Shown here: positions 12,985-29,131 of the stretch, in pieces
How positions within the stretch are numbered: position 1 is the stretch's first letter
Layout: every line of letters starts with the position of its first letter
Assembly: GCA_033812955.1 (NCBI GenBank)
Contig: JAPXSS010000006.1
Coordinates: forward strand, 1,911 to 65,910
Direction of reading: 5' to 3'
DNA length: 64,000 nt
Source: Syntrophobacteraceae bacterium
GTDB lineage: Bacteria; Desulfobacterota; Syntrophobacteria; Syntrophobacterales; Syntrophobacteraceae
Translations under genes and position numbers: made by a program
The notes under the pieces: generated by a model
Database searches by the model: none
Told to the model about the DNA's origin: nothing
Seen by the model: only the letters and a program-made list of their open reading frames with translations

Positions 12985-13041
12985 CAGGTGATGTTTGGAT
13001 TGAGGCTGTTTGCCCTGAGCTGATAACCGAGAGGAATGTCA

Positions 13042-13482
13042 ATGGCTGAAACATTCGAACCCAAAATTGTAGCCTTCGTGTGTAACTGGTGCGCCTATGC
13101 CGGCGCCGATCTGGCTGGGGTGGGTCGCATGCAGTACCCCACCAACGTGCGTCTCATCCGTTTGATGTGCACGGGCAGAATCAATCATGCCTTCCTGCTG
13201 AACGCTTACCAGGCAGGAGTGGACGGAGTCATGGTATCCGGGTGACACATCGGGGACTGCAATTACCTGGGAGGTAATGAAAAGTGTCTGAAGGTGGTTG
13301 AGGATACCCATAAAGTCCTCCGGCTGTTGGGTGTGGACGAACGGTATCTTTTTCTGAAATGGGTTTCAGCTTCGGAAGGGCCGATTTTTGCCGAGACGAT
13401 TCGAAATTACACCGAACTGTTGAAGCAACTGGGTAGAAATCCGCTGGCCGAGGCGCATAGCAGTGTCGCGAGTGCGGCCTGA
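13042..13482 (+). CDS. mvhD: MvhD-like [2Fe-2S] electron-transfer protein, selenoprotein (1 in-frame UGA at 13243-13245)
   Basis: Track ORFs 13036..13245 and 13294..13482 share one frame, separated only by TGA. Joined: [26 protein letters not shown]...[21 protein letters not shown]... The UGA sits where MvhD has the Cys of GCHxGxCHY. RBS AGAGGA lies before ATG 13042. Confidence 0.85.
13244..13288 (+). promoter_or_regulatory. putative bacterial SECIS hairpin for mvhD copy 1
   Basis: Core stem ATTACC(13262-13267)/GGTAAT(13273-13278), loop TGGGA. Outer pairing GACAC(13244-13248)/GTGTC(13284-13288). Confidence 0.5.
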
Positions 13483-13536: not shown

Positions 13537-14676
13537 ATGGAAGAGGCTATGATGATCAGTCTGGAACAAATCAGTTATTGCATGGAGTGTGGGGTCTGCA
13601 CGGGAAGTTGCCCCATCAGCAGATCGTTGACCTCTTTTTCGCCACGCCAGATGATAAAACGCTCGTTGATGGACCATGACGAGACGGTGGTGCAGGGGCG
13701 GGAGCTCTGGGCCTGCCTGACCTGCGCGCGCTGCAGCACCCGCTGTCCGGCGCAGATCGACTTCCCGGAGTTTGCCAGGGCCCACCGCGAACTGGCGCGC
13801 AAGGGAGGGAACCTGCCCCAGTTGAGCCATCACGGAACACTTCAGGCGATCGCAGCACTGCAAACCGCTAACATCAAGCAGCAGCGGACCGATTGGGCGA
13901 CCGAGGCGGGGACCTTCAAGGACAAGGGGGATGTTTTCTGTTTTGTTGGCTGCGCCCCGTACTTCGAAGCCGTCCTGAAGCCGGGTGAGGGTTCCCTGGA
14001 AGTGCCCAAAGCGGTTCTAGGGATACTCAACCGCATGGGCATCGAACCGGCCATCAGCAACGATGAGCGCTGCTGCGGGCATGATGCTCTGTGGAGCGGA
14101 GACGAGGCCACGTTCAAGCAGCTGGCGGCCATGAACCTCGAAGTCATCCGCGGCTCCGGGGCGAAGACGGTGCTGTTCAGTTGTCCCGAAGGCTATACCA
14201 CCTTCAAAAACCAGATCCCCAAGTACTTTGGCGATCTGCCCTTTGAGGTCCTTCACGTGACCGAATTCTTCGCCCGTGAGTTGCCTGCCTCCGGCGTGAA
14301 ATTCTCCCCCTGTACCAACAACGGGAAAGGCGGGGTGACGTATCAAGACCCGTGCCGGCTGGGTCGCGTGGCCGGGATCTACGAGGCGCCGCGGGAGCTG
14401 ATTCGGCTTGTTCCCGACGCCAGGTTCGAAGAAATGCCGCGCAACCGCGAAAATGCTCTTTGCTGCGGTACCAGTGCCTGGATGGAATGCTCCAACTGTT
14501 CTAAATCCATCCAGATCGAGAGGCTGCAGGAAGCGCGTGACGCCGGAGCCCACACGCTCATTACGAGCTGTCCCAAATGCCGCATCCATCTGAGTTGCGG
14601 TCAGCAGAACACTGATTTGACCGACCTGGAAGTGGTCGATCTCTTCGCTTTTCTTCTACAGCACATTGAATCGTGA
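13537..14676 (+). CDS. HdrC/HdrB fusion-type Fe-S oxidoreductase (2x[4Fe-4S] plus two CCG domains; HdrD/GlpC-like)
   Basis: CMECGVCTGSCP and CLTCARCSTRCP, then FVGCAPYF...CCGHD and YQDPCRLGR...CCGTS. The start could instead be ATG 13549 or 13552. Confidence 0.75.
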   Translation: MEEAMMISLEQISYCMECGVCTGSCPISRSLTSFSPRQMIKRSLMDHDETVVQGRELWACLTCARCSTRCPAQIDFPEFARAHRELARKGGNLPQLSHHGTLQAIAALQTANIKQQRTDWATEAGTFKDKGDVFCFVGCAPYFEAVLKPGEGSLEVPKAVLGILNRMGIEPAISNDERCCGHDALWSGDEATFKQLAAMNLEVIRGSGAKTVLFSCPEGYTTFKNQIPKYFGDLPFEVLHVTEFFARELPASGVKFSPCTNNGKGGVTYQDPCRLGRVAGIYEAPRELIRLVPDARFEEMPRNRENALCCGTSAWMECSNCSKSIQIERLQEARDAGAHTLITSCPKCRIHLSCGQQNTDLTDLEVVDLFAFLLQHIES

Positions 14677-14753: not shown

Positions 14754-14871
14754 TACGTTTACAGTGGGGTTACTGGGCGTTTTCGGTGGAAACGCCCCAC
14801 CGTCACCACTGTATGGTTACAAGAGCGAACTTCGATAAGGATGATTTGAAACCCAAAAGGAGACCCTATTC

Positions 14872-16404
14872 GTGAAGCGGGATGTGTTGGTGATTGGGGG
14901 TGGTATTGCAGGCATTCAGGCATCTTTGGACCTGGGTGAAATGGGGTTTCAGGTGCATCTCGTGGAACGGTTGCCAAGTATTGGCGGTAAGATGGCGCAG
15001 CTTGACAAGACGTTTCCCACCAATGATTGCGCCTTGTGAATTCTCGCGCCAAAGCTGATGGATGTCGGTCGACATCCCAACATCCGGTTGCTGGCCTACT
15101 CGGAAGTGGAAAAAGTGGAGGGGGAAATCGGGGATTTTCACGTCACGGTGCGCAAGAAGGCCCGTTATGTTGATGAAAATAAATGCACGGGGTGTGGGAC
15201 ATGCGCCGAGAAGTGTCCGACGGTAACTTCCGACGTCTACAACCTCGGGCTTGGCAAAGCCAAGGCCATCTATAAGTACTTTGCCCAAGGGATTCCATCC
15301 GCTTATACCATCGACGCCAATGCGTGCCGACAGCTCCAGGGGAAGAAGTGCGGTGTTTGCGCCAAGGTCTGTCAGGCCGGCGCCATCGATTACAAGATGC
15401 AGGAAAAGATCGTCGAACTCGACGTTGGCGCCATCATTGTGGCGACCGGCTACGATCTCTTCGATGCTCGCAGGATTCCTGAGTATGGCTATGGGAGGCT
15501 GCCCAACGTGGTCACGGCCCTGGAATTCGAGCGGTTCCTTTCGGCCAGCGGACCGACCCACGGGCACGTCTATCGCCGTTCGGACCTGGCCCTGATGGAT
15601 GCTCTGCCCGAGGCGGAAAAGAGCCAGCAGAAAGCGGCCAGGGGCCTTGAACAGTTGGAAAAGAAAGGCGGGATGAGTTCCGCCGATTTTTATACCAAGT
15701 ATGAGGCCGGTGAACTGCAAGGCGAAGAGTACGACAAGTGGGCCGAGCAGGTTAAGGTTTCCCGCGCCGCCACAGAAAAGCTCGATGCCATGAAGGCGAA
15801 AGTCGAGCAGATCGAGGGTGCGCATCGGCTGGCCTTCATCCAGTGCGTGGGCTCCCGCGACCTTCGCTTCAACCAGTACTGTTCCGGCTTCTGCTGCATG
15901 CACGCCATCAAGGAGGCGATCATTGGCCTGGAACATGATCGGGAAGCGGAAGTCTATATTTTCGGGATGGATATCCGTGCGGTCGGGAAGAATTTTGAAG
16001 AGTATCGAAATCGGGGAGCGAACGAAGCCGGCATCAAATTCGTTCGAAGCCGGGTGGCCGAGATCTACGAGGACAAGGATCACACTCCAATCCTCGTTTA
16101 CGAAGACACCAAGGAGCGCCGGGTGAAGCAGCTGCCGGTAGATCTGGTGATCCTGGCCACCGCCTGCCAGCCCAGCGAAGGGTTAGTGAAGCTAGCGGAG
16201 ATTTTGGGCATTAAGACCAACAACTTTGGCTTCATCGACACCGCCTCATATCTGCCTCTCGATACCTCACGGCCGGGCATCTTCGTTTGCGGTTGTGCCC
16301 AAAGCCCAATGGATATTCCCGAATCGGTTGCTCAGGCGAGCAGTGCCGCTGCCATGGCAGCCCAGGTGTTGTCAGGCCCTGAGACCGAATGTCTCGCCTC
16401 CTGA
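14872..16404 (+). CDS. hdrA: HdrA-like FAD/Fe-S flavoprotein, selenoprotein (UGA at 15037-15039), copy 1
   Basis: Own translation from GTG 14872 (RBS AAGGAGA 14857-14863): [68 protein letters not shown]..., in frame with track ORF 15058..16404. The UGA replaces the second Cys of the HdrA TNDCxxC motif (HdrL has Cys there). Confidence 0.85.
15060..15077 (+). promoter_or_regulatory. putative SECIS hairpin for hdrA copy 1
   Basis: GGATGTCG-GT-CGACATCC, perfect 8-bp arms starting 21 nt after the UGA. The apical pairs probably open to give a larger loop. Confidence 0.4.
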
Positions 16405-16418
16405 AGGAGAACATGTCA

Positions 16419-18140
16419 ATGACTGGTGATACCGAGAAGACCGCAGAGCTCAACGGCAAGGAAGTCAAGACGGGCGTTTTCGTCTGTCACTGTGGTTCCA
16501 ATATTGCGGGCCTCCTGGATTGCGAGGCGCTCGTCGACTATGCATCCAAGCTGCCCAACGTGGCTTATGCCAAGAACAATCTCTACACCTGTTCCGAAGC
16601 GGGCATTGCCGAGATCATGAATGCCATTAAGGACCATGGGCTCACCCGCGTCGTGGTGGCATCCTGTTCGCCCCGCACCCATATGCCGCTCTTCAAGAGT
16701 GCCTGCGCCGAGGCCGGTTTGAACCCCTACCTCTTTGAAATGGCCAACATTCGGGACCAGTGTTCGTGGGTGCACATGCACGAAAAGAGTGAGGCCAACC
16801 TCAAGGCTCGTGATCTGATCCGGATGGCGGTGGCCAAAGCCGAATATCTTCAGCCGCAGCAGGACATTGAAGCCTCGCTGGTGCGCAAAGCGCTCGTTAT
16901 CGGTGGGGGAATTGCCGGTCTGTCGGCTACCGTAGCACTGGCCAATATGGGAACGGAAGTGATCCTGGTGGAGAAGGCGGCCGAGCTTGGCGGGCTGTTG
17001 CGGCGTATCAACCGCGTCGGTCCCCGTGGCGACAAGGCTTCCGAGTTGCTCAGGAAACTGGTTGAGCAGGTCCAGGCAAAGCCGCAGGTGACCACGTTGT
17101 TGGAGAGCGAGCTGGCTGCGGTCGGCGGCGTGGTGGGCAATTATGAGGTCACGTTGCGCGGGAGAGATGGCGCGGAGCGGAAGGAGACCGTCGGGTGCAT
17201 CGTGGTGGCCACGGGGGCGGTGCCGTTCATCCCGGAAGGAATGTATGGGTATAACGGGAAGAACGTGATCACCCAGATTGACCTGGAAGAGAAGCTCCGG
17301 GATGGGACCCTCGAGGCCAAGCGGATCGTCATGATTCAGTGTGTGGGCGCCAGGTCGCCCGAGCGCACCTATTGTGGAAGGATTTGTTGCCAGACTGCCA
17401 TTAAAAACGCTCTCTACATCAAGGAGCTCAATCCCGAGGCGTATGTTCACATCCTCTATCGCGACATTCAGATGTATGGCACTGACAACGAACGGATGCT
17501 TTGGGATTCGCGCGGCAAGGGCGTTCGCTACGACATCTATACCGAGGAACGGCCGCCGATGGTGAAGGACGGGGTGGTGGAGGTTTATCAACCCCTGTTG
17601 GGTGAGGTGGAAGAGATTCCGTTTGATCTCCTGGTACTTTCGACCCCGCTGCTGGCACCGTCAGATTCGGCGGCGGTCGCCAACTTGATGCGCATCCCTG
17701 TCGATCAGAACGGCTTCTATCTCGAAGCCCATGCGAAGCTTCGTCCTCTGGACTTTGCCAGCGACGGAATCTTCCTCTGCGGCACGGCGCGCTATCCGGC
17801 AACGGTCAGGGAAGCCCAGGCCCAGGGGTTGGGTGCCGCCTCGCGCACCAGTACGGTACTCTCGAAGGAGAAACTTGTTTTCAGCGCGCTCGTCTCTTAT
17901 GTTACCGAAAAGTGTGACGGCTGTGCTTTGTGTATCGATTTGTGTCCGTATTACGCAATCTCCACTGAAGAGTATGAGGATGAAGGGGGCCGGAAGCACA
18001 AGCGAGTTAAGTCGGACAACATCCTTTGCAAGGGATGCGGGGTGTGTGCGGCCACCTGTCCCAAAGGAGGCATCATTGTGCACGGATTCACCGGGGAGCA
18101 GATTCGGGCCCAGGTGGATGCCGCTCTCGAAGCGGTCTAG
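16419..18140 (+). CDS. second HdrA-like subunit (N-terminal Cys-cluster domain, FAD domain, C-terminal 2x[4Fe-4S] ferredoxin domain), lacks the TFPTNDC motif, copy 1
   Basis: [74 protein letters not shown] 16404-16410 favours ATG 16419 over 16389 or 16413. Collinear with the C-terminal half of HdrL. Confidence 0.8.
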   Translation: MTGDTEKTAELNGKEVKTGVFVCHCGSNIAGLLDCEALVDYASKLPNVAYAKNNLYTCSEAGIAEIMNAIKDHGLTRVVVASCSPRTHMPLFKSACAEAGLNPYLFEMANIRDQCSWVHMHEKSEANLKARDLIRMAVAKAEYLQPQQDIEASLVRKALVIGGGIAGLSATVALANMGTEVILVEKAAELGGLLRRINRVGPRGDKASELLRKLVEQVQAKPQVTTLLESELAAVGGVVGNYEVTLRGRDGAERKETVGCIVVATGAVPFIPEGMYGYNGKNVITQIDLEEKLRDGTLEAKRIVMIQCVGARSPERTYCGRICCQTAIKNALYIKELNPEAYVHILYRDIQMYGTDNERMLWDSRGKGVRYDIYTEERPPMVKDGVVEVYQPLLGEVEEIPFDLLVLSTPLLAPSDSAAVANLMRIPVDQNGFYLEAHAKLRPLDFASDGIFLCGTARYPATVREAQAQGLGAASRTSTVLSKEKLVFSALVSYVTEKCDGCALCIDLCPYYAISTEEYEDEGGRKHKRVKSDNILCKGCGVCAATCPKGGIIVHGFTGEQIRAQVDAALEAV

Positions 18141-18199
18141 AGTCGTTGGCGGAGTCTGTTCAGTAGCTCGTTGATTTTCTGAGAAAGGAGTTTCCCTCG

Positions 18200-18631
18200 A
18201 TGTCTGATGATTTCAAACCGGTCATCTTAGGGTTCTTGTGTACGTGGTGAGCATACGCTGCTGCTGACCTGGCTGGGGTCAGTCGTATGCAGTATCCGTC
18301 GAACCTGCGGATAGTGCGGGTCATGTGTTCGGGGATGGTCAGTCCTGACATTGTGGTGCGTGCCTTGGACAAAGGCGCAGATGGCGTTCTGGTGGTTGGG
18401 TGACACCTCGGCGAATGTCATTACCTGGAAGGTAATCAAAAGGCAAACGCTCGGCAAGAAGCGACCAAGATTGTCCTCGAAAACCTTGGAATCGATACCG
18501 ACCGGTTTCTAACCGCTTGGGTATCGTCGGCGGAAGCTCCCAAGTTTGCGGAGGTGGTTACAGCTTATGTGAACCATATCAAAGAGTTGGGGCCAAATCC
18601 TCGGAAGCAGCAAAAAGCGGAAGCCGCCTGA
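18200..18631 (+). CDS. mvhD: MvhD-like protein, selenoprotein with two in-frame UGA codons (18248-18250 and 18401-18403)
   Basis: Own translation from ATG 18200 (RBS AAAGGAG): MSDDFKPVILGFLCTW-U-AYAAADLAGVSRMQYPSNLRIVRVMCSGMVSPDIVVRALDKGADGVLVVG-U-HLGECHYLEGNQK...PNPRKQQKAEAA*. No plus-strand ORF is listed in the track for this gene, because the two UGAs cut it into sub-60-aa pieces. Confidence 0.85.
18251..18290 (+). promoter_or_regulatory. putative SECIS hairpin (first UGA of mvhD copy 2)
   Basis: GCATACG(18251-18257)/CGTATGC(18284-18290) outer stem. CTGACC(18264-18269)/GGTCAG(18277-18282) inner stem, loop TGGCTGG. Confidence 0.5.
18420..18436 (+). promoter_or_regulatory. putative SECIS hairpin (second UGA of mvhD copy 2)
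   Basis: ATTACC/GGTAAT stem, loop TGGAA. Same element as downstream of the equivalent UGA in mvhD copy 1. Confidence 0.5.
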
Positions 18632-18676
18632 TCATGAGGATATCTCGCGGAGGCACCGAAACTTAAGAGGTGTTAC

Positions 18677-19603
18677 ATGGCAGCTAGGGTAGCGGAAGAG
18701 TGGTTGAACGCCTGTGCGGGTTGTGAGATCTCGGTGGTAGATCTGGGTGAGCGTTTGCTGAAGGTATTGGAGCTCGTCGAGTTCGTTCACATCCCGGTGC
18801 TGATGGATCACAAATATTACGGTCAGTTGGGGGAGGGAAAGCATATTCACATCCCCGAAGCGGATGTGGGAATCATCAGTGGCAGCATCCGCAATACTGA
18901 GCATCTCGAAGTGGCCGAGGAGATGCGCAAGCAGTGCAAGATCATTGTGGCCTTGGGCACCTGTGCGACTCACGGGGGGATCCCGGCCTTGGCCAATTCC
19001 TACCAAAACCAGGAGATGTATGATCGGTATTACTCAACCGAGACTACCGATATACCTAACTCTTTTCCAACCGATGGGCTCCCGCCGTTGCTGGACGCCT
19101 GCTACGCGTTGGATGAAAAGATCAAGGTGGACGTCTACCTGCCCGGTTGTGCTCCCCATCCGGACCAAGTTTTTGTCGGGCTGGCGGCTCTTCTCGGGCT
19201 CATGCCGCTGGCACTGCCTGACAAGAGTGTCTGCGATACCTGTCCCACAGTCAGAGAGGGGAAGGGACAGGTTAAGCAACTACAGCGATTCCTGCATTCG
19301 CCCCATTATGGAGCGCCCGACGAACCGTTGGATAAGATGCGCTGCCTATTGGAGCAGGGGTTTCTCTGCATGGGACCAGTGACCAAAGCCGGCTGCGGTG
19401 GTGACGGGGTTGTTCCGCGCTGCATCATTGCCCGGGTGCCGTGCCGGGGCTGCTATGGGCCAGTGGAGCACGACGGCAACCAGCTCCTGGACATGCTCAA
19501 TGCGCTGGCGTCCAATGGCATCGATATCAAGTCTCTGCCCGAGTATGCTTCTCTGTTGCGTTTTTCCGGGGCCCACCATCTGCTGACGCCGCGGAAGAAA
19601 TAG
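18677..19603 (+). CDS. mvhG: [NiFe(Se)] hydrogenase small subunit, group 3c (MvhG-like)
   Basis: NACAGCEISVVD, ALGTCATHGGIPA, multiple C-terminal Cys clusters (CDTCP, CMGPVTKAGCGG, CRGC). No Tat signal, consistent with a cytoplasmic enzyme. Confidence 0.85.
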   Translation: MAARVAEEWLNACAGCEISVVDLGERLLKVLELVEFVHIPVLMDHKYYGQLGEGKHIHIPEADVGIISGSIRNTEHLEVAEEMRKQCKIIVALGTCATHGGIPALANSYQNQEMYDRYYSTETTDIPNSFPTDGLPPLLDACYALDEKIKVDVYLPGCAPHPDQVFVGLAALLGLMPLALPDKSVCDTCPTVREGKGQVKQLQRFLHSPHYGAPDEPLDKMRCLLEQGFLCMGPVTKAGCGGDGVVPRCIIARVPCRGCYGPVEHDGNQLLDMLNALASNGIDIKSLPEYASLLRFSGAHHLLTPRKK

Positions 19604-19618
19604 AGGGAGGATGAGAAT

Positions 19619-21064
19619 ATGGCGCGAGTAATCAACATTGCTCCCATAACCCGCATCGAGGGGCACGGCTCGGTCGAGATCCAGCTTGATGACGGGGGGA
19701 GTGTAAGCAGTACCAAAGTGCACTACATGTCGCTACGGGGCTTTGAGAAGTTCATCGAGGGCAAGCCTGCAGAAGAAGTGCCCCGGATTGTGACCCGCAT
19801 TTGCGGTATTTGCCCGTGGCATCACCACATGGCTTCGAACAAGGCTGTGGATCGCTGTTTTGGCGTGACCCTGCCACCGACTGGGTGGAAGCTGCGGGAA
19901 TTTGCCCAGACCATGGCCCATGCTGAAGACAAGCTGCTGCACTTCTACTTTCTAGCGGCGGCGGACTTTGTGATGGGACCGGACGCCCCCTATGAGGTGC
20001 GAAATGTTATCGGGGTTGCCAAAGCCAATCCCGAGCTGGCCACCAAAGCGGTCCAGATGCGCTACATGGCGAAAATGATTCTTGAAAAACTGGGCGGCAA
20101 GGCCATTCATCCCCATGCCGCGGTAGCAGGCGGTTTCTGCCGGCCCCTGCTCAATTCTGAACGGCTGGAATTCCTGGAGAAACTCAAGGTGCTGCTGGAA
20201 TTCTCGCACGATACCCTCAAGTTTGCCAAAGCGAACGTGTTTCCCAAATACCTCGATGTGGTCAAGACCCTTGGGGTCATCAACACCGGTTTCCTTGGCA
20301 CTGTGGATGAGAAGGGCAACCTTGCCCTCTTCGACGGCAAGCTGCGCCTGATGAAAGCCGACGGCTCCTTCGTGGATTTCAGTCCCCAAGACTACATCGA
20401 TTATCTGGGCGAAGCAGTGGTACCCTTCTCGTATGGCAAGTTTCCGTATGCCCGCTCTTGGAATGAGGGCTTTTCTCTCGATATCGACAATCCCAAGGGC
20501 ATCTACCGGTGCAATTGTCTTGCCCGGATCAATGCCTGCGACGCAATCTCGACGCCGCGGGCCCAGGCGGAGCTGGAAGAGTTTCGCAAGGCTTTCGGGC
20601 GCCCGGCGCAGTTAACCCTGCTCTATCACTGGGCGCGGCTGATCGAGGATGTGTATGCCTACGAGCATGCCATCGAGCTGCTGGAAGACCCGGCAATTTG
20701 CGACACGGACATTCGGGCAAAGGTGGAACCCAAGGCAGGAAGAGGGGTGGGCTGTGTGGAAGCTCCCCGCGGGACCCTGATTCACGACTACACCACGGAT
20801 GACAACGGTTTGATCAAGCACGCCAACCTCATCGTGGGGACGACGCACAATCTGGGCCCCATTAATATGAGCGTCAATCAGGCCTCCAAGATGTTGATCA
20901 AGAACGGTGAGGTGAACGAGGGCATCCTCAACATGATTGAGATGTCGATACGCGCCTACGACCCCTGAATTAGCTGCGCCACTCATTGCCTGGATGGCAA
21001 TAATGGGTTCTCGATCAAAGTCATCGACGCCAAGGGTGAAATCATCACCAGGCGGCCTGCGTAG
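19619..21064 (+). CDS. mvhA: [NiFeSe] hydrogenase large subunit, group 3c (MvhA/Vhu-like), selenoprotein (UGA at 20966-20968)
   Basis: RIEGHG and RICGICPWHH N-terminal Ni-site motif. Track ORF stops at TGA 20966, but reading on gives AYDP-U-ISCATHCLDGNNGFSIKVIDAKGEIITRRPA* (TAG 21062-21064). That is the DPCxxCxxH C-terminal Ni-site motif with Sec in the first position. Confidence 0.85.
20985..21001 (+). promoter_or_regulatory. putative SECIS hairpin for mvhA
   Basis: ATTGCC/GGCAAT stem with loop TGGAT, 17 nt after the UGA. Confidence 0.45.
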
Positions 21065-21129
21065 CATTGAAGGGGCAATGCCCCTGAGGCAGGGGGGGTT
21101 AGGAGTTAACCGGACCTGAGTAAAGAAGC

Positions 21130-21164
21130 GGGGGTAGTTCTCAGCGAGCTACCCCCCTGGTTTT
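21130..21164 (+). terminator. rho-independent terminator-like hairpin after mvhA
   Basis: GGGGGTAG(21130-21137)/CTACCCCC(21149-21156), 11-nt loop, followed by CTGGTTTT. Confidence 0.5.
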
Positions 21165-21188
21165 CCGGGAAAGAGCTTTAGCGGGGGT

Positions 21189-21821
21189 TCAGCTTATCAC
21201 CCACACCGCGATGTCCTGCGCCACCTGCGTGAGCTTGGCGGCAATTCGCCCGATCTGGAATTCTTCAACCTCGGATACGCCGCGCCGACCCACGACAATG
21301 GTCCCGTAGCGGCCGTTGCGGGCTTCATTGAGAAGGGCCGTTGACCGGCTGACCACTCCCGAGATCACCTTGGTGTTGATTTTGGCTGGATCGGCTCCCA
21401 TGGCGGTCAAGGATTTGGAGAGTTTTTCGAACATCGGCTAGATCGCGTCCTGAGCATCATCCTGGAGCTTCTGGAGGATGTAAGTCTCGTCTTCCTGTGG
21501 AAATCTAACCACATGAGCCGGCGTTACCTGCGGTTCACCCTTGCCCAACATCCTGCCGACGAAATTCGCGGCCCGCATGGATCCCCAGGAATTGTCCACA
21601 CTCGCAAGGATTTTGCCTCCCTTCGATTTTCCGCCTACCAGATAAACCGTCGGGCCAACCACATTCAACCGTACCTTGCTAGCAATGCTGTCATGAATGG
21701 TATCATCCGCGGCCCCGATGCCCCTACGTCCCATGGCCACAAGGTCGCAGCCGAACCGGCACTCTTCGAGGATGTCTCTGGCAAAGCCGTTCTTGCGCTT
21801 TTGAATGAGGATTATCAGTTT
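21189..21821 (-). pseudogene. remnant of a tandem universal stress protein (UspA family) gene: 5' truncated, with an in-frame TAG
   Basis: Track ORFs 21438..21740 and 21189..21434 share one frame, split by TAG (21440-21438). Together they give one Usp domain (...GRYGTIVVGRRGVSEVEEFQIGRIAAKL...). The frame upstream reads ...ARDILEECRFGCDLVAMGRRGIG (C-terminus of another Usp domain) but hits a stop at 21824-21822 with no start codon. Confidence 0.5.
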
Positions 21822-21890
21822 CTAATATATGCTTCAACAGACATACAGCGTGATTAGCCGTGATTGTCCTCAAAATCAGGCAAAGAATTG

Positions 21891-21919
21891 TTGATATCCA
21901 CAAAAAAATGAAGTATATT
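21891..21919 (+). promoter_or_regulatory. candidate sigma70-type promoter facing hdrA copy 2
   Basis: TTGATA(21891-21896)-N17-TATATT(21914-21919) in the less GC-rich spacer. It would give a ~430-nt leader. Confidence 0.3.
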
Positions 21920-22359
21920 GCTATCGATTGTGAATGTTCACCCTCAAATTCTCCGCAGAAGCTCGGTGGAAAAAGCTGACAATTATGGGCGCCTCCTCGG
22001 AAAAGCTGCTTTTCGTATGTCTTCGCACAGGGCGGAGAAATATGATGGGCTGGGAGAGGGTGGAAGTTTCTCAACCACCGCGAGTCAAAATTGGCACCCT
22101 CCGATCCCACGCATCCAGCCTGGGGACGACTCCGATAACGCGCCAAAATGGTCTGTATAATGAGGCATGGATTGGAATGAGGTCGTCGTCAACCTCATTC
22201 GCCAGGCTACGCTTTGTCTCCACCCGGCGTTGTCGAGGTTGGGCTCGAGGAGGACGGATGCTTGTGGCTCCAGAAGGCAGGGAGACCTTGTCTCCGATGT
22301 TCTTTTGAAATAGGTCGAACAACGACGGATGGTTTGAAACCCAGAAGGAGACCCTACTC

Positions 22360-23889
22360 GTGAATCGCGACGTGTTAGTGATTGGGGGAGGAATTGCGGG
22401 CATGCAAGCCTCTCTGGACCTGGGTGAAATGGGATTCCAGGTGCATCTGGTGGAGCGATTGCCAAGCATTGGCGGCAAGATGTCGCAGCTTGACAAAACG
22501 TTTCCCACCAATGATTGCGCCCTTTGAATCCTGGCGCCGAAGCTGATGGATGTCGGTCGACATCCCAAGATCCGGTTGCTGGCCTACTCAGAGATTGAAA
22601 AAATTGACGGTGAAATAGGGAATTTTCACATCACGGTTCGCAAAAAAGCCCGTTATGTCGATGAAAAGAAATGCACGGGTTGCGGGACGTGTGCGGAAAA
22701 GTGTCCGACGGTAACTTCCGACGTCTACAACCTCGGGCTTGGCAAAGCCAAGGCCATCTATAAGTACTTTGCCCAAGGGATTCCGTCCGCCTATACCATC
22801 GACGCCAATGCGTGCCGACAACTCCAGGGGAAGAAGTGCGGTGTTTGCGCCAAGGTCTGTCAGGCCGGCGCCATCGACTACAAGCAGCAGGAGCAGATCA
22901 TCGAGTTCGAGGTGGGGGCCATCATTGTGGCCACCGGTTATGATCTCTTCGATGCTACGAAAATCCCGGAATATGGTTACGGGCGACTGCCCAACGTGGT
23001 CACCGCCCTGGAATTCGAACGGTTCCTCTCCGCCAGCGGCCCCACGCATGGTCACGTCTATCGCCGTTCGGACCTGGCCCTGATGGATGCTCTGCCCGAG
23101 GCGGAAAAGAGCCAGCAGAAAGCGGCCAGGGGCCTTGAACAGTTGGAGAAGAAAGGCGGGATGAGTTCCGCCGATTTCTATGCCAAGTATGAGGCTGGTG
23201 AACTGCAAGGCGAAGAGTACGATAAGTGGGCCGAGCAGGTTAAGGTTTCCCGCGCCGCCATGGAAAAGCTCGAGACCATGAAGGCGAAAGTCAACCAGAT
23301 CGAGGGCGCGCATCGGCTGGCCTTCATCCAGTGCGTGGGGTCCCGCGACATTCGCTTCAATAAGTACTGTTCAGGCTTTTGCTGCATGCATGCCGTCAAA
23401 GAGGCCATCATTGGCCTGGAACACGACAGGGACGCCGAAGTCTACATATTCGGCATGGATATCCGCGCGGTCGGAAAGAACTTCGAGGAGTACCGCAATC
23501 GTGGTGCCGGTTCCGGGATCCAGTTCATCAGGAGCCGGGTGGCCGAAATTTACGAGGACAAAGATCACACTCCCATCCTCGTTTATGAGGACACCAAAGA
23601 GCGGCTGGTGAAGCAAATGCCGGTGGACCTGGTGATTCTGGCCACCGCTTGCCAGCCCAGTGAAGGGATAGTCAAAATGGCGGCCACGGTGGGTATCGAA
23701 ACCAACGATTTCGGCTTCATCAAGACCGCCTCTTACCCGCCGCTCAGCACCTCGCGGCCGGGAGTCTTCGTCTGCGGCTGTGCGGTAAGTCCCATGGATA
23801 TTCCTGAATCGGTTGCTCAGGCCAGCAGTGCCGCGGCCAGAGCAGCTCAGGTTCTGTCAGGTTCTGAGACCGAACGTCTCGCCTCCTGA
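22360..23889 (+). CDS. hdrA: HdrA-like FAD/Fe-S flavoprotein, selenoprotein (UGA at 22525-22527), copy 2
   Basis: Own translation from GTG 22360 (RBS AAGGAGA): [68 protein letters not shown]..., in frame with track ORF 22546..23889. Same geometry as copy 1 (Sec at codon 56). Confidence 0.85.
22548..22565 (+). promoter_or_regulatory. putative SECIS hairpin for hdrA copy 2
   Basis: Identical GGATGTCGGTCGACATCC element at the same offset as in copy 1. Confidence 0.4.
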
Positions 23890-23903
23890 AGGAGAACAAG
23901 TCA

Positions 23904-25622
23904 ATGAGTGGTGATACGGAGAAGACAGCAGAGTTCAACACCAAGGATGCACGGATCGGCGTTTTTGTCTGTCATTGCGGTTCCAATATTGCGGGCCTCC
24001 TGGACTGCCCGGCCTTGACCGAATATGCATCCGGGCTGCCCAACGTGGTTTTTACCAAGAATAATCTCTACACCTGTTCCGAAGCGGGCATTGCCGAGAT
24101 CATGAACGCCATTAAGGACCATGGGCTCACCCGCGTCGTGGTGGCCTCCTGCTCGCCGCGCACCCATATGCCGCTCTTCAAGAGCGCGTGCGCCGAGGCG
24201 GGGCTCAATCAGTACCTGTTCGAAATGGCCAACATTCGGGATCAGTGCTCCTGGGTTCACGCGCAGGATCAAGAATTGGCCCAGATCAAAGCCATGGACT
24301 TGATCCGGATGGCGGTGGCCAAAGCCAGGTTCCTGGAACCGGCTGAGGACATCGAGTCCTCCCTGGTGCGCCGTGCCATGGTCATTGGTGGCGGGGTGGC
24401 CGGGCTGTCGGCGGCCGGCGCTCTGGCGGACATGGGGATGGAAGTGATCCTGGTGGAAAAGCAGGCAGAACTCGGCGGCCTGCTGCGTCGGATCAATCGC
24501 ATTGGCCCGGGCGGCGAAAAGGCTTCCGAGCTGCTGGGTATGCTGGTGGCGGACTTTAAGTCCAAGCCAAGGGCCAAGGCGCTGCTGGAGAGTGAAGTGT
24601 CGGCAGTGAGTGGGGTGGTTGGCAATTACGAGGTGACCATTCGCGACAAAAGTGGTGAGATGCAGACGGAAACGGTGGGCTGCATTGTCGTTGCCACCGG
24701 AGCGCTGCCGTTCACTCCCGAAGGACTGTACGGGTACAACGGAAAGAATGTGATCACCCAGATTGAACTGGAAGAGAAGCTTCGGGACGGCACCCTCGAC
24801 GCCAAACGGGTGGTCATGATCCAGTGCGTTGGTGCCAGATCGCCTGAGCGGACCTATTGTTCGCGGATCTGCTGCCAGACGGCTATCAAGAACGCTCTCT
24901 ACATCAAAGAGCTCAATCCCGAGGCTCATGTCCATATCCTCTATCGTGACATCCAGATGTACGGCACCGACAACGAACGGATGCTGTGGGACTCACGCGG
25001 CAAGGGCGTTCATTACGATGTTTACGATGTTGAGCGGCCGCCGGTGGTGAAGGACGGGGTGGTTGAGGTTTATCAGCCGCTGCTGGGTGAGGTGGGGCAG
25101 ATTCTTTTCGATCTGCTGGTGCTCTCGACTCCCCTGGTGGCCCCTGCAGATGCGCAGGACGTTGCCAACCTGATGCGCATTCCCGTGGACCAAAATCGTT
25201 TCTACCTGGAGGCCCATGCCAAACTGCGGCCGTTAGATTTTGCCACCGACGGGGTCTTCCTGTGCGGGACAGCACGCTATCCGGCAACCGTAGGGGAAGC
25301 CCAGGCCCAGGGGCTGGGGGCGGCGTCGCGGGCTGCGACCGTGCTGTTCAAAGACAAGCTGGTAGCCAGCGCCTTGATCTCTCAGGTGACGGAGCGTTGC
25401 GACGGCTGTGGTGCCTGTGTCGAGCTCTGCCCTTACCATGCGCTCAGTCTCGAGGAGTACGAACAAGACGGACGGAAACTCAAGCGCAACAAGGTCGACA
25501 AAATGTTATGCAAGGGGTGCGGAGTGTGCGCCGCCACCTGTCCCAAAGGGGGCGTGGTGGTCTGTGGATTCACTCGCACGCAGCTCCAGGCCCAAGTGGA
25601 TGCAGCGCTCGAAGCGGCTTAG
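23904..25622 (+). CDS. second HdrA-like subunit, copy 2
   Basis: Collinear paralogue of 16419..18140 (VFVCHCGSNIAG, VIGGGVAGLSA, MIQCVGARS, CDGCGACVELCP, CKGCGVCAATCP). RBS AAGGAGA lies 8 nt upstream. Confidence 0.8.
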   Translation: MSGDTEKTAEFNTKDARIGVFVCHCGSNIAGLLDCPALTEYASGLPNVVFTKNNLYTCSEAGIAEIMNAIKDHGLTRVVVASCSPRTHMPLFKSACAEAGLNQYLFEMANIRDQCSWVHAQDQELAQIKAMDLIRMAVAKARFLEPAEDIESSLVRRAMVIGGGVAGLSAAGALADMGMEVILVEKQAELGGLLRRINRIGPGGEKASELLGMLVADFKSKPRAKALLESEVSAVSGVVGNYEVTIRDKSGEMQTETVGCIVVATGALPFTPEGLYGYNGKNVITQIELEEKLRDGTLDAKRVVMIQCVGARSPERTYCSRICCQTAIKNALYIKELNPEAHVHILYRDIQMYGTDNERMLWDSRGKGVHYDVYDVERPPVVKDGVVEVYQPLLGEVGQILFDLLVLSTPLVAPADAQDVANLMRIPVDQNRFYLEAHAKLRPLDFATDGVFLCGTARYPATVGEAQAQGLGAASRAATVLFKDKLVASALISQVTERCDGCGACVELCPYHALSLEEYEQDGRKLKRNKVDKMLCKGCGVCAATCPKGGVVVCGFTRTQLQAQVDAALEAA

Positions 25623-25802
25623 AGTTTGGCAGGGTGTTGAAAAATCTTCCCCAACGTCTCCCCGGCGAAACCCGGAGTACAGAAAACCATGCGGAACCTG
25701 GATGTCGGTTTTCACCGGCATGACGGACAGAGCCTTCGATGCACTTTTTCAACAGCCTGCTAGAGGAGTACTCACAAACAGGTAAGAAAGGAGTTTTCCC
25801 CC

Positions 25803-26222
25803 ATGTCCGATGAGTATGTTCCCACCATTGTTGGATTCCTCTGCACGTGGTGAGCGTACGCCGCTGCTGACCTGGCTGGGGTCAGTCGTTCGCAGTACCC
25901 TCCCAATCTGCGTATCGTCCGGATGATGTGCTCCGGGATGGTCAGTCCCGACCTGGTGGTACGCGCCCTGTCCAAAGGTGCCGACGGCGTGCTGGTGCTG
26001 GGATGCCACCTGGGTGAGTGTCACTACATGGAAGGCAATTTCAACGCGGCCAAGCGGATGGCGGTAATCAAGAATCTGCTCGCCTTTACCGGGATCGACC
26101 CGGCGCGGCTCAGGGTGGAATGGGTATCGTCCGCCGAAGCGCCCAAACTGGTCGAGATTGTTATCGACTTCACCAACCAGATCAAAGATCTCGGACCCTC
26201 CCCGTTGAAGGCTGTGGCCTGA
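25803..26222 (+). CDS. mvhD: MvhD-like protein, selenoprotein (one UGA at 25851-25853; Cys at the second site)
   Basis: Own translation from ATG 25803: MSDEYVPTIVGFLCTW-U-AYAAADLAGVSRSQYPPNLRIVRMMCSG...GVLVLGCHLGECHYMEGN..., in frame with track ORF 25923..26222. Confidence 0.85.
25854..25893 (+). promoter_or_regulatory. putative SECIS hairpin for mvhD copy 3
   Basis: CTGACC(25867-25872)/GGTCAG(25880-25885), loop TGGCTGG. Outer GCGTACG/CGTTCGC with one mismatch. Homologous to the 18251-18290 element. Confidence 0.45.
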
Positions 26223-26256: not shown

Positions 26257-27081
26257 ATGAGAAAGGCTCTTTTTATGGTTGAAAAGATCAAAGCAAGAGT
26301 TCAGGAACTGTTGGCGTCCGGCAAGATCAAAGGTTTCCTCGGTCTCCGCGAAAGGTACGGCCACGTCGGCCCTTACCTTTTTACCGATCCCAATGACCTC
26401 GACGGAATGTCCGTCGGCGATGGGGCAAAACCCGGCGATACCCGCTATTCGCTCAACAAACAACTCATCAGGCTGGTCCATTCTTATCAGGACGACGCTT
26501 TCGGCGTGTTGGTGCGCGGCTGCGATGAGCGCGGGCTGAAAACCCTGATTGCCTCCAACCAGCTCGACCCGGCACGGGTGGTTTCCGTCGGTTTGGCCTG
26601 CCCCCAGGAACTGGCCGATGCCTGCGAGTGTATGAAGCCCTTTCCCGATGAGTACGTTGCGGGTGAGCCATCCGAAGGGCGGCCTTTTGCCGGAGTGGCT
26701 CAGATCGAGGCCATGGCCATGGAGGAGCGTTTCAAGGTCTGGCTGGCCGAGTTCGCCAAATGCGTCAAGTGCTATGGCTGTCGCGATGTCTGTCCGATGT
26801 GCTACTGCAAGGAATGCACCCTGGGAGGCAAGGATTTTGTGAACGTCGGCACCCTGCCGCCGCAAAATCCCATCTTCCACATCACCCGCGCGCTCCACAT
26901 GGCAGGAAGATGCATCGACTGTGGGCTGTGTAATGAAACCTGCCCTGCGGATATCCCACTACGAACGCTCTACAAGAAGATCGCAGACCTTGTTGACCAG
27001 GAGTACCAGTATCGGCCGGGCTATGGCGAACCCAAGGCCAGCCTGACCATTCACGGCCTCGGTGATTCCCCACAACACTGA
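26257..27081 (+). CDS. 2x[4Fe-4S] Fe-S protein, putative electron-transfer partner of the formate dehydrogenase
   Basis: CVKCYGCRDVCPMC and CIDCGLCNETCP ferredoxin-type motifs in the C-terminal half. The N-terminal half was not recognised. The role is inferred only from its position between mvhD and fdhA. Confidence 0.5.
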   Translation: MRKALFMVEKIKARVQELLASGKIKGFLGLRERYGHVGPYLFTDPNDLDGMSVGDGAKPGDTRYSLNKQLIRLVHSYQDDAFGVLVRGCDERGLKTLIASNQLDPARVVSVGLACPQELADACECMKPFPDEYVAGEPSEGRPFAGVAQIEAMAMEERFKVWLAEFAKCVKCYGCRDVCPMCYCKECTLGGKDFVNVGTLPPQNPIFHITRALHMAGRCIDCGLCNETCPADIPLRTLYKKIADLVDQEYQYRPGYGEPKASLTIHGLGDSPQH

Positions 27082-27094
27082 GAGGAGCATTGGT

Positions 27095-29131
27095 ATGAAT
27101 TACCGGAATGTACTGACCACGTGCACCTACTGCGGCTGCGGGTGCACTCTCTATCTCGAGGTTTTGGGCGGCCACCTGGTGAACACGATTCCCTGCAAGA
27201 CCAGCAATCTCAACGAAGGCAAGCTTTGTGTCAAAGGCTGGAACGTCCACGAATTCGTTGAGAGCTCGAATCGCCTGACTCAGCCGTTGCTGCGTAAAGA
27301 TGGCAAGCTGGCCCCGGTTTCCTGGGATGAGGCGCTGGATTTTATTGCCAAACGGCTGAAGGAAATCAAAGAGGCCAACGGCCCTGATAGCATTGCCTTT
27401 CTGGCCTCGGCCAAGGTGACCAACGAGGAAAACTACCTCATCCAGAAGTTCGCGCGAGCGGCAGTGGGAACCAACAATGTCGACCACTGCGCCCGTCTCT
27501 GACACTCCTCGACGGTGGCAGGACTTGCTGCCTCGTTTGGGAGTGGGGCGATGACCAACTCTATCGCCGAAATCGAAAACGCCGATTGCATCATCGTGAT
27601 TGGTTCCAATACCCCATCGAATCACCCGCTGGTCGCAACCCGTATTTACCGCGCCCAGGCAAAGGGGGCGAAACTGGTGGTGGTAGACCCCCGCAAGGTT
27701 CCCTTGGCAAAGAACGCCACCCTGTATGTGCAGCACAAGCTTGGTACTGATGTGGCGCTGATCAACGGGATCATGAACGTCATCCTCACTAACGGCTGGC
27801 ACAACGAGGCCTTCATCAAGGAGCGGACCGAGGGCTTCGAGGAACTCCGCAAGGTGGTCGAACAGTATCCACCGGAGCGTGCGGCGGAGATCACCGGGGT
27901 TTCGGCCGATGACATTCGCACCATCGCCGAATGGTACGCTAAGGCCAAGGCCAGCTCCATTGTCTATTGCATGGGCATCACCCAGCACACGACCGGGGTG
28001 GACAACGTCAAATCCCTGGCCAACCTGGCCATGCTGACCGGCAACATCGGCCGGGAATCGACGGGCGTCAACCCGCTGCGCGGCCAGAACAACGTGCAGG
28101 GGGCCTGCGATATGGGTGGGCTGCCCAACGTCTATCCCGCCTACCAGCCGGTGAACAACCCGGATATTCAGAAGAAGTTCGAAGCCGCCTGGCATGCCAA
28201 ACTCTCCGATAAGATCGGGCTCACTATTCCAGGGGTCCTCGAAGGCTTGTCCGCGGGTATGGTGAAGGCGGTCTACATCGTCGGCGAGAATCCCATGGTG
28301 AGCGACCCTGACGTAAACCACGTGGAAAAGGCCCTGCGCGAAGCGGAGCTGCTGGTGGTCCAGGACATCTTCCTCACCCCGACGGCCGAACTGGCGCATG
28401 TGGTGCTACCCGGCGCCTCCTTTGCCGAAAAGGACGGCACCTTCAGCAACACCGAACGGCGCGTTCAGCGGGTGCGCAAAGCGATTGAACCCATCGGAGA
28501 GTCGCGGGCGGACTGGGAGATCCTCCAGGATCTCTCCACCCGCTTCGGCTACCCCATGAAATACGAGTCCCCGGCCGAAATCATGGCAGAGGTAGCTACG
28601 GTCGCCCCATCCTACGGGGGCATCAGCTACGACCGGCTCGAGGGTGAAGGTCTCTTCTGGCCCTGCGTCAACAAGGACCATCCGGGTACGAGAGTCCTCC
28701 ACCAGGGCAAATTCTCGCGTGGCTTGGGGCTCTTTCATGCAATCGATTTCAAGCCGCCGGCGGAACAGATCGATACCGAATATCCCTTCTGGCTCACCAC
28801 CGGGCGGGTTCACGTGCATTACCATACCGGCACCATGACCCGCAACTCCCCTTCCCTTCATGCGGAAATGCCCGAGGGTTTCCTCGAAATCAACCCGCAG
28901 GATGCCAAAGCACTTGGGGTGAGAGCGGGGGATAGGGTGAAGGTGAGTTCCCGGCGTGGGGAAATGGTGACGCGGGTGGACTGCACCAAGCGGGTAACTC
29001 CCGGAATGGTCTTCATGCCGTTCCATTTTGTAGAAACGTGCGCCAACATCCTGACCAACCCGGCCAATGATCCCATTGCCAAGATTCCCGAGTACAAGGT
29101 GTGCGCGGTGAAGCTGGAAAAGGCGGCATGA
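27095..29131 (+). CDS. fdhA: formate dehydrogenase catalytic subunit (molybdo/tungstopterin), selenoprotein (UGA at 27500-27502)
   Basis: MNYRNVLTTCTYCGCGC (N-terminal 4Fe-4S). Track ORFs 27062..27502 and 27515..29131 share one frame; joined they read NVDHCARL-U-HSSTVAGL, the canonical FdhA/FdhF Sec active-site motif. RBS GAGAGGAG lies before ATG 27095. Confidence 0.9.
27504..27544 (+). promoter_or_regulatory. putative SECIS hairpin for fdhA
   Basis: ACTCC(27504-27508)/GGAGT(27540-27544) outer stem. GGCAG(27517-27521)/CTGCC(27528-27532) apical stem, 6-nt loop GACTTG. Begins directly after the UGA, as in fdhF-type SECIS. Confidence 0.55.

Follow-up and report, generated by a model that had tools for sequence, protein, structure and literature searches.

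The path of electrons through Hdr-type complexes, from MvhAG via MvhD and HdrA's C-terminal ferredoxin domain to flavin adenine dinucleotide (FAD), is known from structures, and complementary HdrA genes standing in tandem have been inferred to encode heterodimers (Chadwick et al. 2022, PMC9012536). In Syntrophobacter fumaroxidans, the proteins of two bacterial gene clusters of this kind, Fhl-f and Fhl-h, were detected and found to be more abundant in syntrophic growth (PMC5947623). Here, we analyzed a stretch of 64,000 nucleotides (nt) from a Syntrophobacteraceae bacterium (assembly GCA_033812955.1, contig JAPXSS010000006.1, positions 1,911 to 65,910 of the forward strand), which we call the window and which carries two tandem copies of an hdrA-hdrA2-mvhD cassette, one followed by hydrogenase genes and the other by formate dehydrogenase genes. 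Bifurcation or confurcation by Hdr-type enzymes lies at the heart of the scant energy economy of propionate-oxidizing syntrophs in digesters and sediments, and the coupling of one flavin core to H2, formate, and NAD(P)H donors in bacteria is the question on which this locus bears, as a natural experiment. The enzyme family, the S. fumaroxidans counterpart, the idea of a split HdrA, and the selenoproteins are already known; the second hdrA, the mosaic make-up of the repeat, and its sharp boundary appear to be new.

Judged by its genes and their order, the locus appears to be the counterpart of the Fhl-f (Sfum_1795-1806) and Fhl-h (Sfum_1791-94) cluster of S. fumaroxidans MPOB, with which it shares gene families and core order at protein identities of 71-81%. 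We read the locus of genome G015 as that of strain MPOB, and it is very probably the Fhl-f/Fhl-h cluster seen in proteomes. Its genes form one string: an HdrL-like gene, mvhD0, hdrD, an hdrA with selenocysteine (Sec), then hdrA2-mvhD-FeS-fdhA, then hdrA2-mvhD-hydS-hydL, with usp beside hydL. A single hdrA is thus present for both donor modules, formate first and hydrogenase second. The genus of the window (g1; the window strain itself is G000) differs in having a second hdrA with its own leader, the reverse order of donor modules, and usp together with terminator-like and promoter-like sites between the cassettes.

Extent of the repeat and the histories of its parts

When the window was compared with itself by blastn, the two cassettes aligned collinearly in two blocks, 14839-18150 with 22327-25630 (81.5% identity over 3317 nt, 18 gap positions) and 18182-18436 with 25785-26039 (77.3% identity over 255 nt). 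The upstream regions are unrelated up to a point ∼33 nt ahead of each hdrA GTG start, where near-identity begins. This shared leader occupies 14839..14871 on the plus strand in cassette 1, where it forms the 5′ edge of the repeat and holds the ribosome-binding site (RBS) AAGGAGA, and 22327..22359 on the plus strand in cassette 2. As a segment of ∼35 nt, it precedes each hdrA in all species of the genus and is not found in the other genera. The layout of hdrA stop, RBS, and hdrA2 start is common to both copies (...CTCGCCTCC TGA AGGAGAAC..ATG), as is the mvhD RBS (GAAAGGAGTTT). Since the geometry is the same in both, the real start of hdrA2_1 is probably 16419 rather than 16389, where the open reading frame (ORF) opens. 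We also considered a donor-specific hdrA/hdrA2 junction, with an overlap in the hydrogenase type versus a spacer of 14-17 nt in the formate type, and rejected it, the 16389 ORF being an extension artifact. Between hdrA2 and mvhD, the spacer is 180 nt in copy 2 and 59 nt in copy 1.

An earlier, sequence-only reading of this DNA had described much of this arrangement: similarity starting in the leader, identical start geometry with the same RBS before hdrA2 and mvhD, ∼120 nt extra between hdrA2 and mvhD of copy 2, Sec at codon 56 of both hdrA copies, and a different donor enzyme at the end of each copy. Our alignments agree with it on each of these points. An in-frame TGA is present in each hdrA, genes with VhuG/VhuA-like matches to [NiFeSe] hydrogenases end copy 1, and genes for an iron-sulfur (FeS) protein and a Sec-containing FdhA end copy 2. 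What that reading made of them, a duplication of the cassette followed by donor swapping, is a separate matter, to which the phylogenies speak.

Divergence between the copies climbs from 5′ to 3′: the hdrA pair is 90.8% identical in amino acids with a synonymous divergence (dS) of 0.58, the hdrA2 pair 79.4% with a dS of 1.08, and the mvhD pair 67.6% with a dS of 1.68. The synonymous divergence is not uniform along the repeat, with values of 0.58 in hdrA, 0.95 in hdrA2 1-470, 2.6 in hdrA2 471 to the end, and 1.68 in mvhD, and there are patches in which the proportion of synonymous differences (pS) between the window's two copies is about 0.1. In all four species of the genus, nucleotide identity between the paralogues falls from 0.8-0.9 to 0.60-0.74 at the 3′ block.

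Trees of single genes conflict with each other. MvhD splits into a hydrogenase type and a formate type, each together with sequences of other genera, and hdrA and whole hdrA2 group by genus. We cut HdrA2 into four segments, the split at residue 480 included, before any tree was seen. The first three segments grouped by genus or even by genome, and segment 481-582, the C-terminal ferredoxin domain, grouped by donor; within it, the hdrA2_2 sequence joins the formate-type copies of other genera (support 95/91). In the tree of HdrA2 481-end combined with MvhD, one branch parts 10 hydrogenase-type from 8 formate-type sequences (100/98), and monophyly of the eight sequences of the genus was rejected by the approximately unbiased (AU) test with a log-likelihood difference (ΔlnL) of 95.7 and a p-AU of 2.9e-8. 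For HdrA2 1-480, the same eight sequences form one clade (100/100), and monophyly was rejected for the formate type (p = 3.8e-4) as well as for the hydrogenase type (p = 3.6e-74). The hdrA copies of the genus also make up one clade (100/99).

Pairwise identities can be read in the same two parts. For hdrA and HdrA2 1-480, the copies are 91% and 81% identical in amino acids to each other, compared with 69-78% to other genera. For HdrA2 481-end and MvhD, the copies are 70% and 67% alike, which is below their same-donor homologues elsewhere: 72-88% for the formate type and 72-76% for the hydrogenase type in most genera (only 65-70% in L068). A sliding profile along HdrA2 flips from paralogue-closest to orthologue-closest at residue ∼479. 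The copies are paralogous, their phylogeny is a mosaic, and the swap or recombination junction falls around codon 476-486 of hdrA2 rather than downstream of mvhD. The comparison of the copies with homologues in other genomes, which could have refuted the sequence-only reading, comes out two ways: hdrA and HdrA2 1-480 of the two copies are closest to each other, whereas HdrA2 481-end and MvhD are closer to same-donor homologues. Whole-gene trees of this locus would misdate the duplication in either direction, a caution for the annotation and phylogeny of Hdr paralogues in general.

We found no donor signal in hdrA, both copies being equally distant from the hydrogenase-only and the formate-only genera. 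This fits with one hdrA serving both donors in S. fumaroxidans. The origin of the 5′ block leans weakly toward a formate-type ancestor, as seen in the tree of the middle segment (80/88) and in identities that are 1-3% higher.

A single, lineage-specific duplication of the whole leader-hdrA-hdrA2-mvhD unit, with the donors replaced afterward and a 3′ end that diverged faster as it adapted to its new donor, would account for collinear similarity over 3.6 kb, for the identical start and RBS geometry, and for the grouping of hdrA and most of hdrA2 by genus. However, it leaves unexplained why MvhD and the HdrA2 C-terminus group with same-donor genes elsewhere (the 100/98 branch, with genus monophyly at p = 2.9e-8) and why same-donor orthologues are more alike than the paralogues; fast divergence cannot have made about 240 residues resemble those of other genera in derived states. 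Moreover, S. fumaroxidans and G016 already hold both donor-specific hdrA2-mvhD pairs with one hdrA. We regard this history as highly unlikely. Of the duplication and donor swapping proposed from the sequence, the paralogous cassettes, their different donors, and an exchange of donors among relatives stand, whereas one whole-unit duplication with a swap after mvhD does not.

Gene conversion and the origin of the two cassettes

Nearly all neighboring proteins of the window are 95-98% identical to those of the sister species G006, but hdrA_1 is only 88% identical, because of two conversion tracts in which hdrA_1 carries copy-2 sequence. Both were delimited by comparison with G006 and lie on the plus strand: tract A at 15211-15389 and tract B at 15565-15851. 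Around tract A, 15205-15345 is 96.5% identical to copy 2 of G000 itself versus 77% to G006 copy 1, and 15211-15296 matches copy 2 without a mismatch. Around tract B, 15546-15850 has 94.4% identity with the second copy of the same strain, compared with 88.5% for copy 2 of G006 and 70.8% for copy 1 of G006. In the sequence that separates and flanks the tracts, hdrA_1 and G006 copy 1 are 93-97.5% identical. Neither tract is present in G006, a sister species at 96% identity. We took a site as diagnostic where the other species have fixed one state in copy 1 and another in copy 2. At such sites, hdrA_1 of G000 shows the copy-2 state throughout tract B (11 of 11), and nearly all of the remaining ∼167 are in the copy-1 state. 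Since copy 2 of G002 shows patches of the copy-1 state, conversion goes both ways.

Tract B covers a charged insert of ∼80 residues in HdrA (residues 239-317; 15586-15822 in copy 1 and 23074-23310 in copy 2), which falls between residues 374 and 379 of the HdrA structure 5ODC and is not present in methanogen HdrA. In G006, no other part of the two hdrA paralogues is as divergent as the insert (66-72% nt identity), whereas it is near-identical between the G000 copies. Because it lies inside tract B, its likeness in G000 reflects recent history and not constraint. Across the 5′ block, dS between paralogues (0.54-1.06) is not above dS between orthologues of the genus's species (0.42-0.98); in the 3′ block, the paralogue values of 1.4-2.6 are saturated. 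Within-genome identity is also raised at the hdrA2 5′ end in S. fumaroxidans and G016. Similarity of the 5′ block is partly kept up by ongoing gene conversion.

Such tracts, or even the second cassette, might come from mis-joined reads of two strains or of paralogues, given that the assembly is a metagenome-assembled genome (MAG) of 226 contigs with 5% contamination and that Logan unitigs break inside the repeat. Several observations speak against an assembly artifact, which we consider extremely improbable. Four more genomes of the genus share the two-cassette order, with contigs that measure 1.2 Mb, 1.09 Mb, and 251 kb, and the tracts are 94-96%, not 100%, identical to copy 2. In addition, mismatch-free unitigs from different studies (X3, 15360-15659; X6, 15492-15594) run over the 5′ edge of tract B, and an X3 unitig spans the insertion of a repeat element in cassette 2. 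The 3′ edge of tract B is reached by unitigs of X1 and X3, in pieces of at most 300 nt. Public runs that contain the window sequence are mainly metagenomes of anaerobic digesters, wastewater, and sludge.

The order of genes was compared across 41 related genomes with 77 named loci. The core order, HdrL-like fusion – mvhD0 – hdrD-like – Sec-hdrA – hdrA2 – mvhD – donor, is conserved, and the donor end varies. Hydrogenase genes alone are found at L064, L065, L067, L089, and L068 (in the last, the small subunit alone was found), and the hydrogenase-type cassette of G013 ends after mvhD at the end of its contig. FeS-FdhA genes alone are found at G017/L061, L060, L069, and L071, and the FeS gene alone in G012, G024, and others. 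A third donor was sought in these "x-type" loci (G012/L062) and rejected: the FeS gene is followed by unrelated Tim44-like and M50 protease genes, and no donor was identified. Both donors with one hdrA, the formate module preceding the hydrogenase module, occur in G015 and G016, which represent S. fumaroxidans and one other genus. Both donors with two hdrA copies, in the order hydrogenase – usp – formate, occur in G000, G001, G002, G006, and fragments of G004, all of the window's genus; among the genomes compared, the second hdrA and this order are limited to that genus. The nearest loci belong to uncultured Syntrophobacteraceae from digesters and similar habitats. In other Syntrophobacteraceae, we noted a distant type of locus (L050, L051, L052, and L053) in which two tandem sets of HdrA-HdrA2-MvhD surround an hdrD-like gene, with no donor genes nearby; this type was not seen at comparable identity in the window's genome.

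The distribution of loci raises the possibility that a complete formate cassette (leader-hdrA-hdrA2-mvhD-FeS-fdhA) was transferred or translocated behind usp of a hydrogenase-only ancestor and that conversion alone then homogenized hdrA and most of hdrA2. Hydrogenase-only and formate-only loci with their own hdrA do exist in related genera, and conversion between the copies is demonstrably active. Furthermore, the position of usp in S. fumaroxidans and L089 shows where the hydrogenase module formerly had its 3′ end; because usp adjoins hydL in S. fumaroxidans too, the formate cassette of the genus sits past that old end. On the other hand, the 5′ edge of the repeat is sharp and identical across the genus with a 35-nt leader unlike those of other genera, which a local duplication fits at least as well, and the borders of the cassettes bear no sign of transfer in composition or in mobile elements. 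The paralogue divergence of hdrA is similar to that of hdrA2 1-470 (dS of 1.06 and 0.82 in G006), as it would be for one event. We judge this acquisition unlikely; it differs from the explanation that we prefer only in the origin of the second hdrA.

That preferred explanation is a three-layer mosaic within an Hdr-type supercluster that appears to be the counterpart of Fhl-f/Fhl-h, and we consider it probable. Its first layer would be the donor-proximal block, namely the C-terminal ferredoxin domain of HdrA2 and MvhD, as an old, family-level pair of donor-specific paralogues. In the second, the leader, hdrA, and HdrA2 codons 1 to ∼480 would have been duplicated or homogenized in the stem of the genus, with the junction at a domain boundary in hdrA2, and each donor module would thereby have gained an hdrA and a transcription unit to itself. 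The third layer would consist of short conversion tracts that still pass between the copies, two of them in hdrA_1 of this strain.

Several points count against the three-layer mosaic or limit its reach. The merged partitions used for the AU tests were picked after the first trees. In the genus stem, the event may have been a single long conversion or else a true duplication of leader-hdrA-hdrA2(5′), joined to the older donor block through unequal crossing-over. The Logan unitigs, being short and undirected, support the tract junction but do not phase it across the whole gene. No cassette orthologue was found in G003, G005, and G007 of the same genus, which reflects either absence or incompleteness. 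Outside the genus, only two genomes carry both modules, and all close relatives are MAGs. That the G015 locus is Sfum_1791-1806 is a probable match, made from its place in the chromosome (about 2.19 Mb) and its numbers of genes (4 and 12) and not from annotation. Lastly, the complexes of the bacterial members are predictions, cassette 2 is without an HdrB/C-type partner of its own, and the RNA evidence is thin.

Under the three-layer mosaic, the two cassettes swap sequence up to a domain boundary and not past it, which points to MvhD and the HdrA2 C-terminal ferredoxin domain as the donor-docking module. The block that resists homogenization is the one predicted to contact the donor, and this suggests selection for donor-specific docking as the reason for the sharp boundary. 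A bolder version is tentative at best: the conversion boundary might be the border of a functional module, with donor specificity residing wholly in MvhD and the HdrA2 C-terminal ferredoxin domain, the flavin core interchangeable, and selection blocking homogenization at the docking module. If so, the cassettes could share or mix their cores, coupling formate and H2 in one cytoplasmic, formate-hydrogen-lyase-like confurcating particle, and natural recombinants would offer a ready map for rewiring bifurcating enzymes to new donors.

Genes, selenocysteine codons, and signals of the locus

Automatic ORF calling splits every selenoprotein gene of the locus, and UGA was translated as Sec for our gene calls. 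All of the following genes are on the plus strand unless stated otherwise. The conserved core begins with a giant HdrL-like fusion (8557..12984), which matches the Pfam and NCBIfam models for HdrA/HdrA2 and the glutamate synthase small subunit and has an HdrA-like part, a GltD/NAD(P)H module, and an HdrA2-like part; it stands upstream of the cassettes in all relatives. In this protein of 1475 aa, the HdrA-like half is broken by the GltD/NAD(P)H module of ∼400 aa and joined to the HdrA2-like half. At least seven more HdrA-HdrA2 fusions of ∼900-1500 aa are encoded elsewhere in the genome, on contigs C2, C3, C47, C61, and C78, some with an in-frame TGA. Next is mvhD0 (13036..13479; PF02662 FlpD, E 1.9e-44), a third MvhD paralogue with Cys at the first site and Sec at the second (UGA 13243). 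This UGA keeps its codon position in 9 genomes, and the mvhD0 proteins make up a separate clade (100/100). The HdrD-like gene (13537..14676) encodes a fused HdrC-type 2x[4Fe-4S] domain and CCG domains (PF02754 CCG, E 1.1e-25; Fer4; TfrB, HdrC, and DsrK-like matches in NCBIfam). It is the sole HdrB/C-type acceptor module of the locus and lies upstream of cassette 1; cassette 2 contains none.

In cassette 1, hdrA_1 (14872..16404) was identified by HdrA hidden Markov models as a Sec-HdrA with an FAD/thioredoxin-reductase fold and an inserted ferredoxin domain, and its UGA at 15037-15039 is codon 56. It is followed by hdrA2_1 (16419..18140), comprising an N-terminal cluster domain, an FAD domain, and a C-terminal 2x[4Fe-4S] ferredoxin domain. 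[quoted passage not shown] The hydrogenase-type mvhD_1 (18200..18631; PF02662, E 3.7e-51) has two Sec codons (UGA 18248 and 18401) and falls in a hydrogenase-type clade across genera (100/99). In both cassettes, mvhD lies directly 5′ of the donor genes. Those of cassette 1 encode a VhuG/MvhG-like hydrogenase small subunit (18677..19603; PF01058; NCBIfam VhuG 207 bits, under its cut-off) and the VhuA-like large subunit of a [NiFeSe] hydrogenase with a fused VhuU-like Sec C-terminus (19619..21064; PF00374; VhuA 447 bits; VhuU), which has its UGA at 20966 in the motif DP-U-ISCATH.

In cassette 2, hdrA_2 (22360..23889) has its UGA at 22525-22527, again codon 56, and its product is 90.8% identical to that of hdrA_1 and 96% to the G006 orthologue. 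The formate-type hdrA2_2 (23904..25622), at 79.4% amino acid identity to hdrA2_1, has its donor-specific block from about 25330 to its end. The formate-type mvhD_2 (25803..26222), with Sec at codon 17 and Cys at codon 68, is 67.6% identical to mvhD_1 (dS 1.68) and 72-80% to the formate-type MvhD of other genera. The donor genes are those of an FeS electron-transfer protein of 274 aa (26257..27081), which has weak Fer4 matches only and is syntenic in all formate-type loci, and of a Sec-containing formate dehydrogenase alpha subunit (27062..29131; UGA 27500-27502; TIGR01591 886 bits, above cut-off), whose start may be the ATG at 27095. Directly downstream of fdhA, on the minus strand (30015-32789), lies a gene for a 924-aa protein with a DUF6600 match only; no homologue was seen at this place in the fetched loci of relatives.

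Codon 56 of hdrA is UGA in 19 of 19 homologues, and neither hdrA2 copy contains a Sec codon. Sec is also present in mvhD, with two UGA codons in copy 1 and one in copy 2 (25851), a feature that the sequence-only reading had not mentioned. At the same two positions of the cluster region, the Sec/Cys patterns are C/U in mvhD0, U/U in mvhD_1, and U/C in mvhD_2, and across genera the pattern is paralogue-specific. Since the hydrogenase-type MvhD of S. fumaroxidans and G016 has the first Sec only, the second one was either acquired or dropped inside the hydrogenase lineage. A hairpin like a Sec insertion sequence (SECIS), with a UGG-type loop, follows each UGA, including both of mvhD_1, and is degraded in mvhD_2 where codon 68 is Cys. 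A search of the whole window with Rfam gave no match at the gathering threshold; at an E-value threshold, the only match was SECIS_3 at fdhA (27497-27555; E 7e-11, with 55.9 bits against a gathering score of 63). No known RNA in Rfam accounts for the leader or for the 130-nt insert in cassette 2. The genome encodes tRNA-Sec (contig C36) and SelB (385 bits, above cut-off).

The extra ∼120 nt of cassette 2 is a strain-specific insertion of a dispersed repeat and is unrelated to the duplication. The element of ∼130 nt (25630..25759, no strand assigned) lies in the hdrA2_2-mvhD_2 spacer of this strain only and has terminal inverted repeats of 15 nt (CAGGGTGTTGAAAAA / TTTTTCAACAGCCTG) around a strongly folding core. 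It is missing from the same spacer in G006, G001, and G002, which measures ∼61-63 nt, and nhmmer found at least 20 copies in the genome, for example at C127:6429-6561, C1:43466-43593, and C4:26519-26646. An independent DNA unitig (X3, 25040-25886) runs across the insertion, an RNA unitig (X8, 25442-25684) leads from hdrA2_2 into it, and the element appears to be co-transcribed with cassette 2.

Between the cassettes lies the remnant of a universal-stress-protein gene, usp (21192..21807, minus strand), recognized by comparison with relatives. The gene encodes an intact tandem-Usp protein of 310 aa (PF00582) in G006 and G001 and is interrupted in G002; in G000, ∼680 nt including its 5′ end are deleted and the frame is split. 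After hydL, a terminator-like hairpin at 21130..21156 (plus strand; 11-bp stem with 7 GC pairs and a T-rich tail) came top of our scan, as a consensus match only. Upstream of cassette 2, we observed a weak promoter-like site at 21891..21919 (plus strand; TTGATA-17-TATATT, 10/12 matches). The hairpin, the usp remnant, and the promoter-like site give a weak indication that the two cassettes are separately transcribed. In X8, an activated-sludge metatranscriptome, exact-match unitigs lie on 21943-22249, shortly past the promoter-like site, and on several parts of cassette 2, with one short piece on cassette 1 (14961-15187). This pattern hints at a 5′ untranslated region of ∼430 nt and at independent expression of the formate cassette.

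Predicted complexes and comparison with known systems

Sec-HdrA aligns to residues 146-571 of 5ODC HdrA, that is, the FAD fold with its inserted ferredoxin domain, and Sec56 falls on Cys197. HdrA2 aligns to residues 10-243 and 324-654 of methanogen HdrA (8RVU), without the inserted domain and without Cys197, and keeps the N- and C-terminal domains. All four HdrA domains are present, divided in complementary fashion over two proteins, of which HdrA carries the Sec. E-values of HdrA against the 5ODC/7BKB chains range from 1e-94 to 1e-125, and the NCBIfam HdrA models score below their cut-offs.

By analogy with methanogens, the cassettes presumably encode flavin-based electron-bifurcating or confurcating complexes. 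From the HdrA/HdrA2 alignments, together with the complementarity described by Chadwick et al., we infer one HdrA/HdrA2 heterodimer per cassette, which would be joined by a Sec-MvhD adaptor and one donor, either the [NiFeSe] hydrogenase or the FeS protein with Sec-FdhA. As in the structures of MvhADG-HdrABC and Fdh-MvhD-Hdr, electrons would pass from the donor to MvhD, then to the C-terminal ferredoxin domain of HdrA2, and on to FAD; the other branches would lead to ferredoxin and to the single upstream HdrD-like protein. In a syntroph, the direction of electron flow may be reversed.

The methanogen complexes MvhADG-HdrABC (5ODC) and Fdh-MvhD-HdrABC (7BKB) are like the predicted ones in combining an HdrA-type FAD protein, an MvhD adaptor, and a donor that is either a group-3c-like [NiFe(Se)] hydrogenase or formate dehydrogenase, and we count the Sec at the Cys197 position among the points of likeness. 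However, methanogen HdrA is a homodimer of a four-domain protein, whereas in the window two complementary genes divide HdrA between them. A single fused HdrD-like protein, with one gene for both cassettes, stands in for HdrB and HdrC, and an unrelated FeS protein of 274 aa for FdhB. The host, unlike the methanogens, is a bacterium without CoM-S-S-CoB.

A second parallel is with the Hdr and Vhu/Vhc enzymes of Methanococcus, which have duplicated genes of the HdrA and MvhD type, some of them encoding selenoproteins, and feed H2 or formate into one bifurcating core. Those paralogues differ by Sec versus Cys and in their regulation by selenium, not by a dedicated donor, and we know of no mosaic or conversion pattern among them. 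The split itself has a parallel in the tandem or fused HdrA pairs of anaerobic methanotrophic (ANME) archaea and of Moorella, which show the same complementary pattern as HdrA2 and Sec-HdrA (PMC9012536). In contrast to those pairs, the pair in the window carries Sec at the position of Cys197, stands in two tandem sets that differ in donor, and swaps sequence between its two copies by gene conversion.

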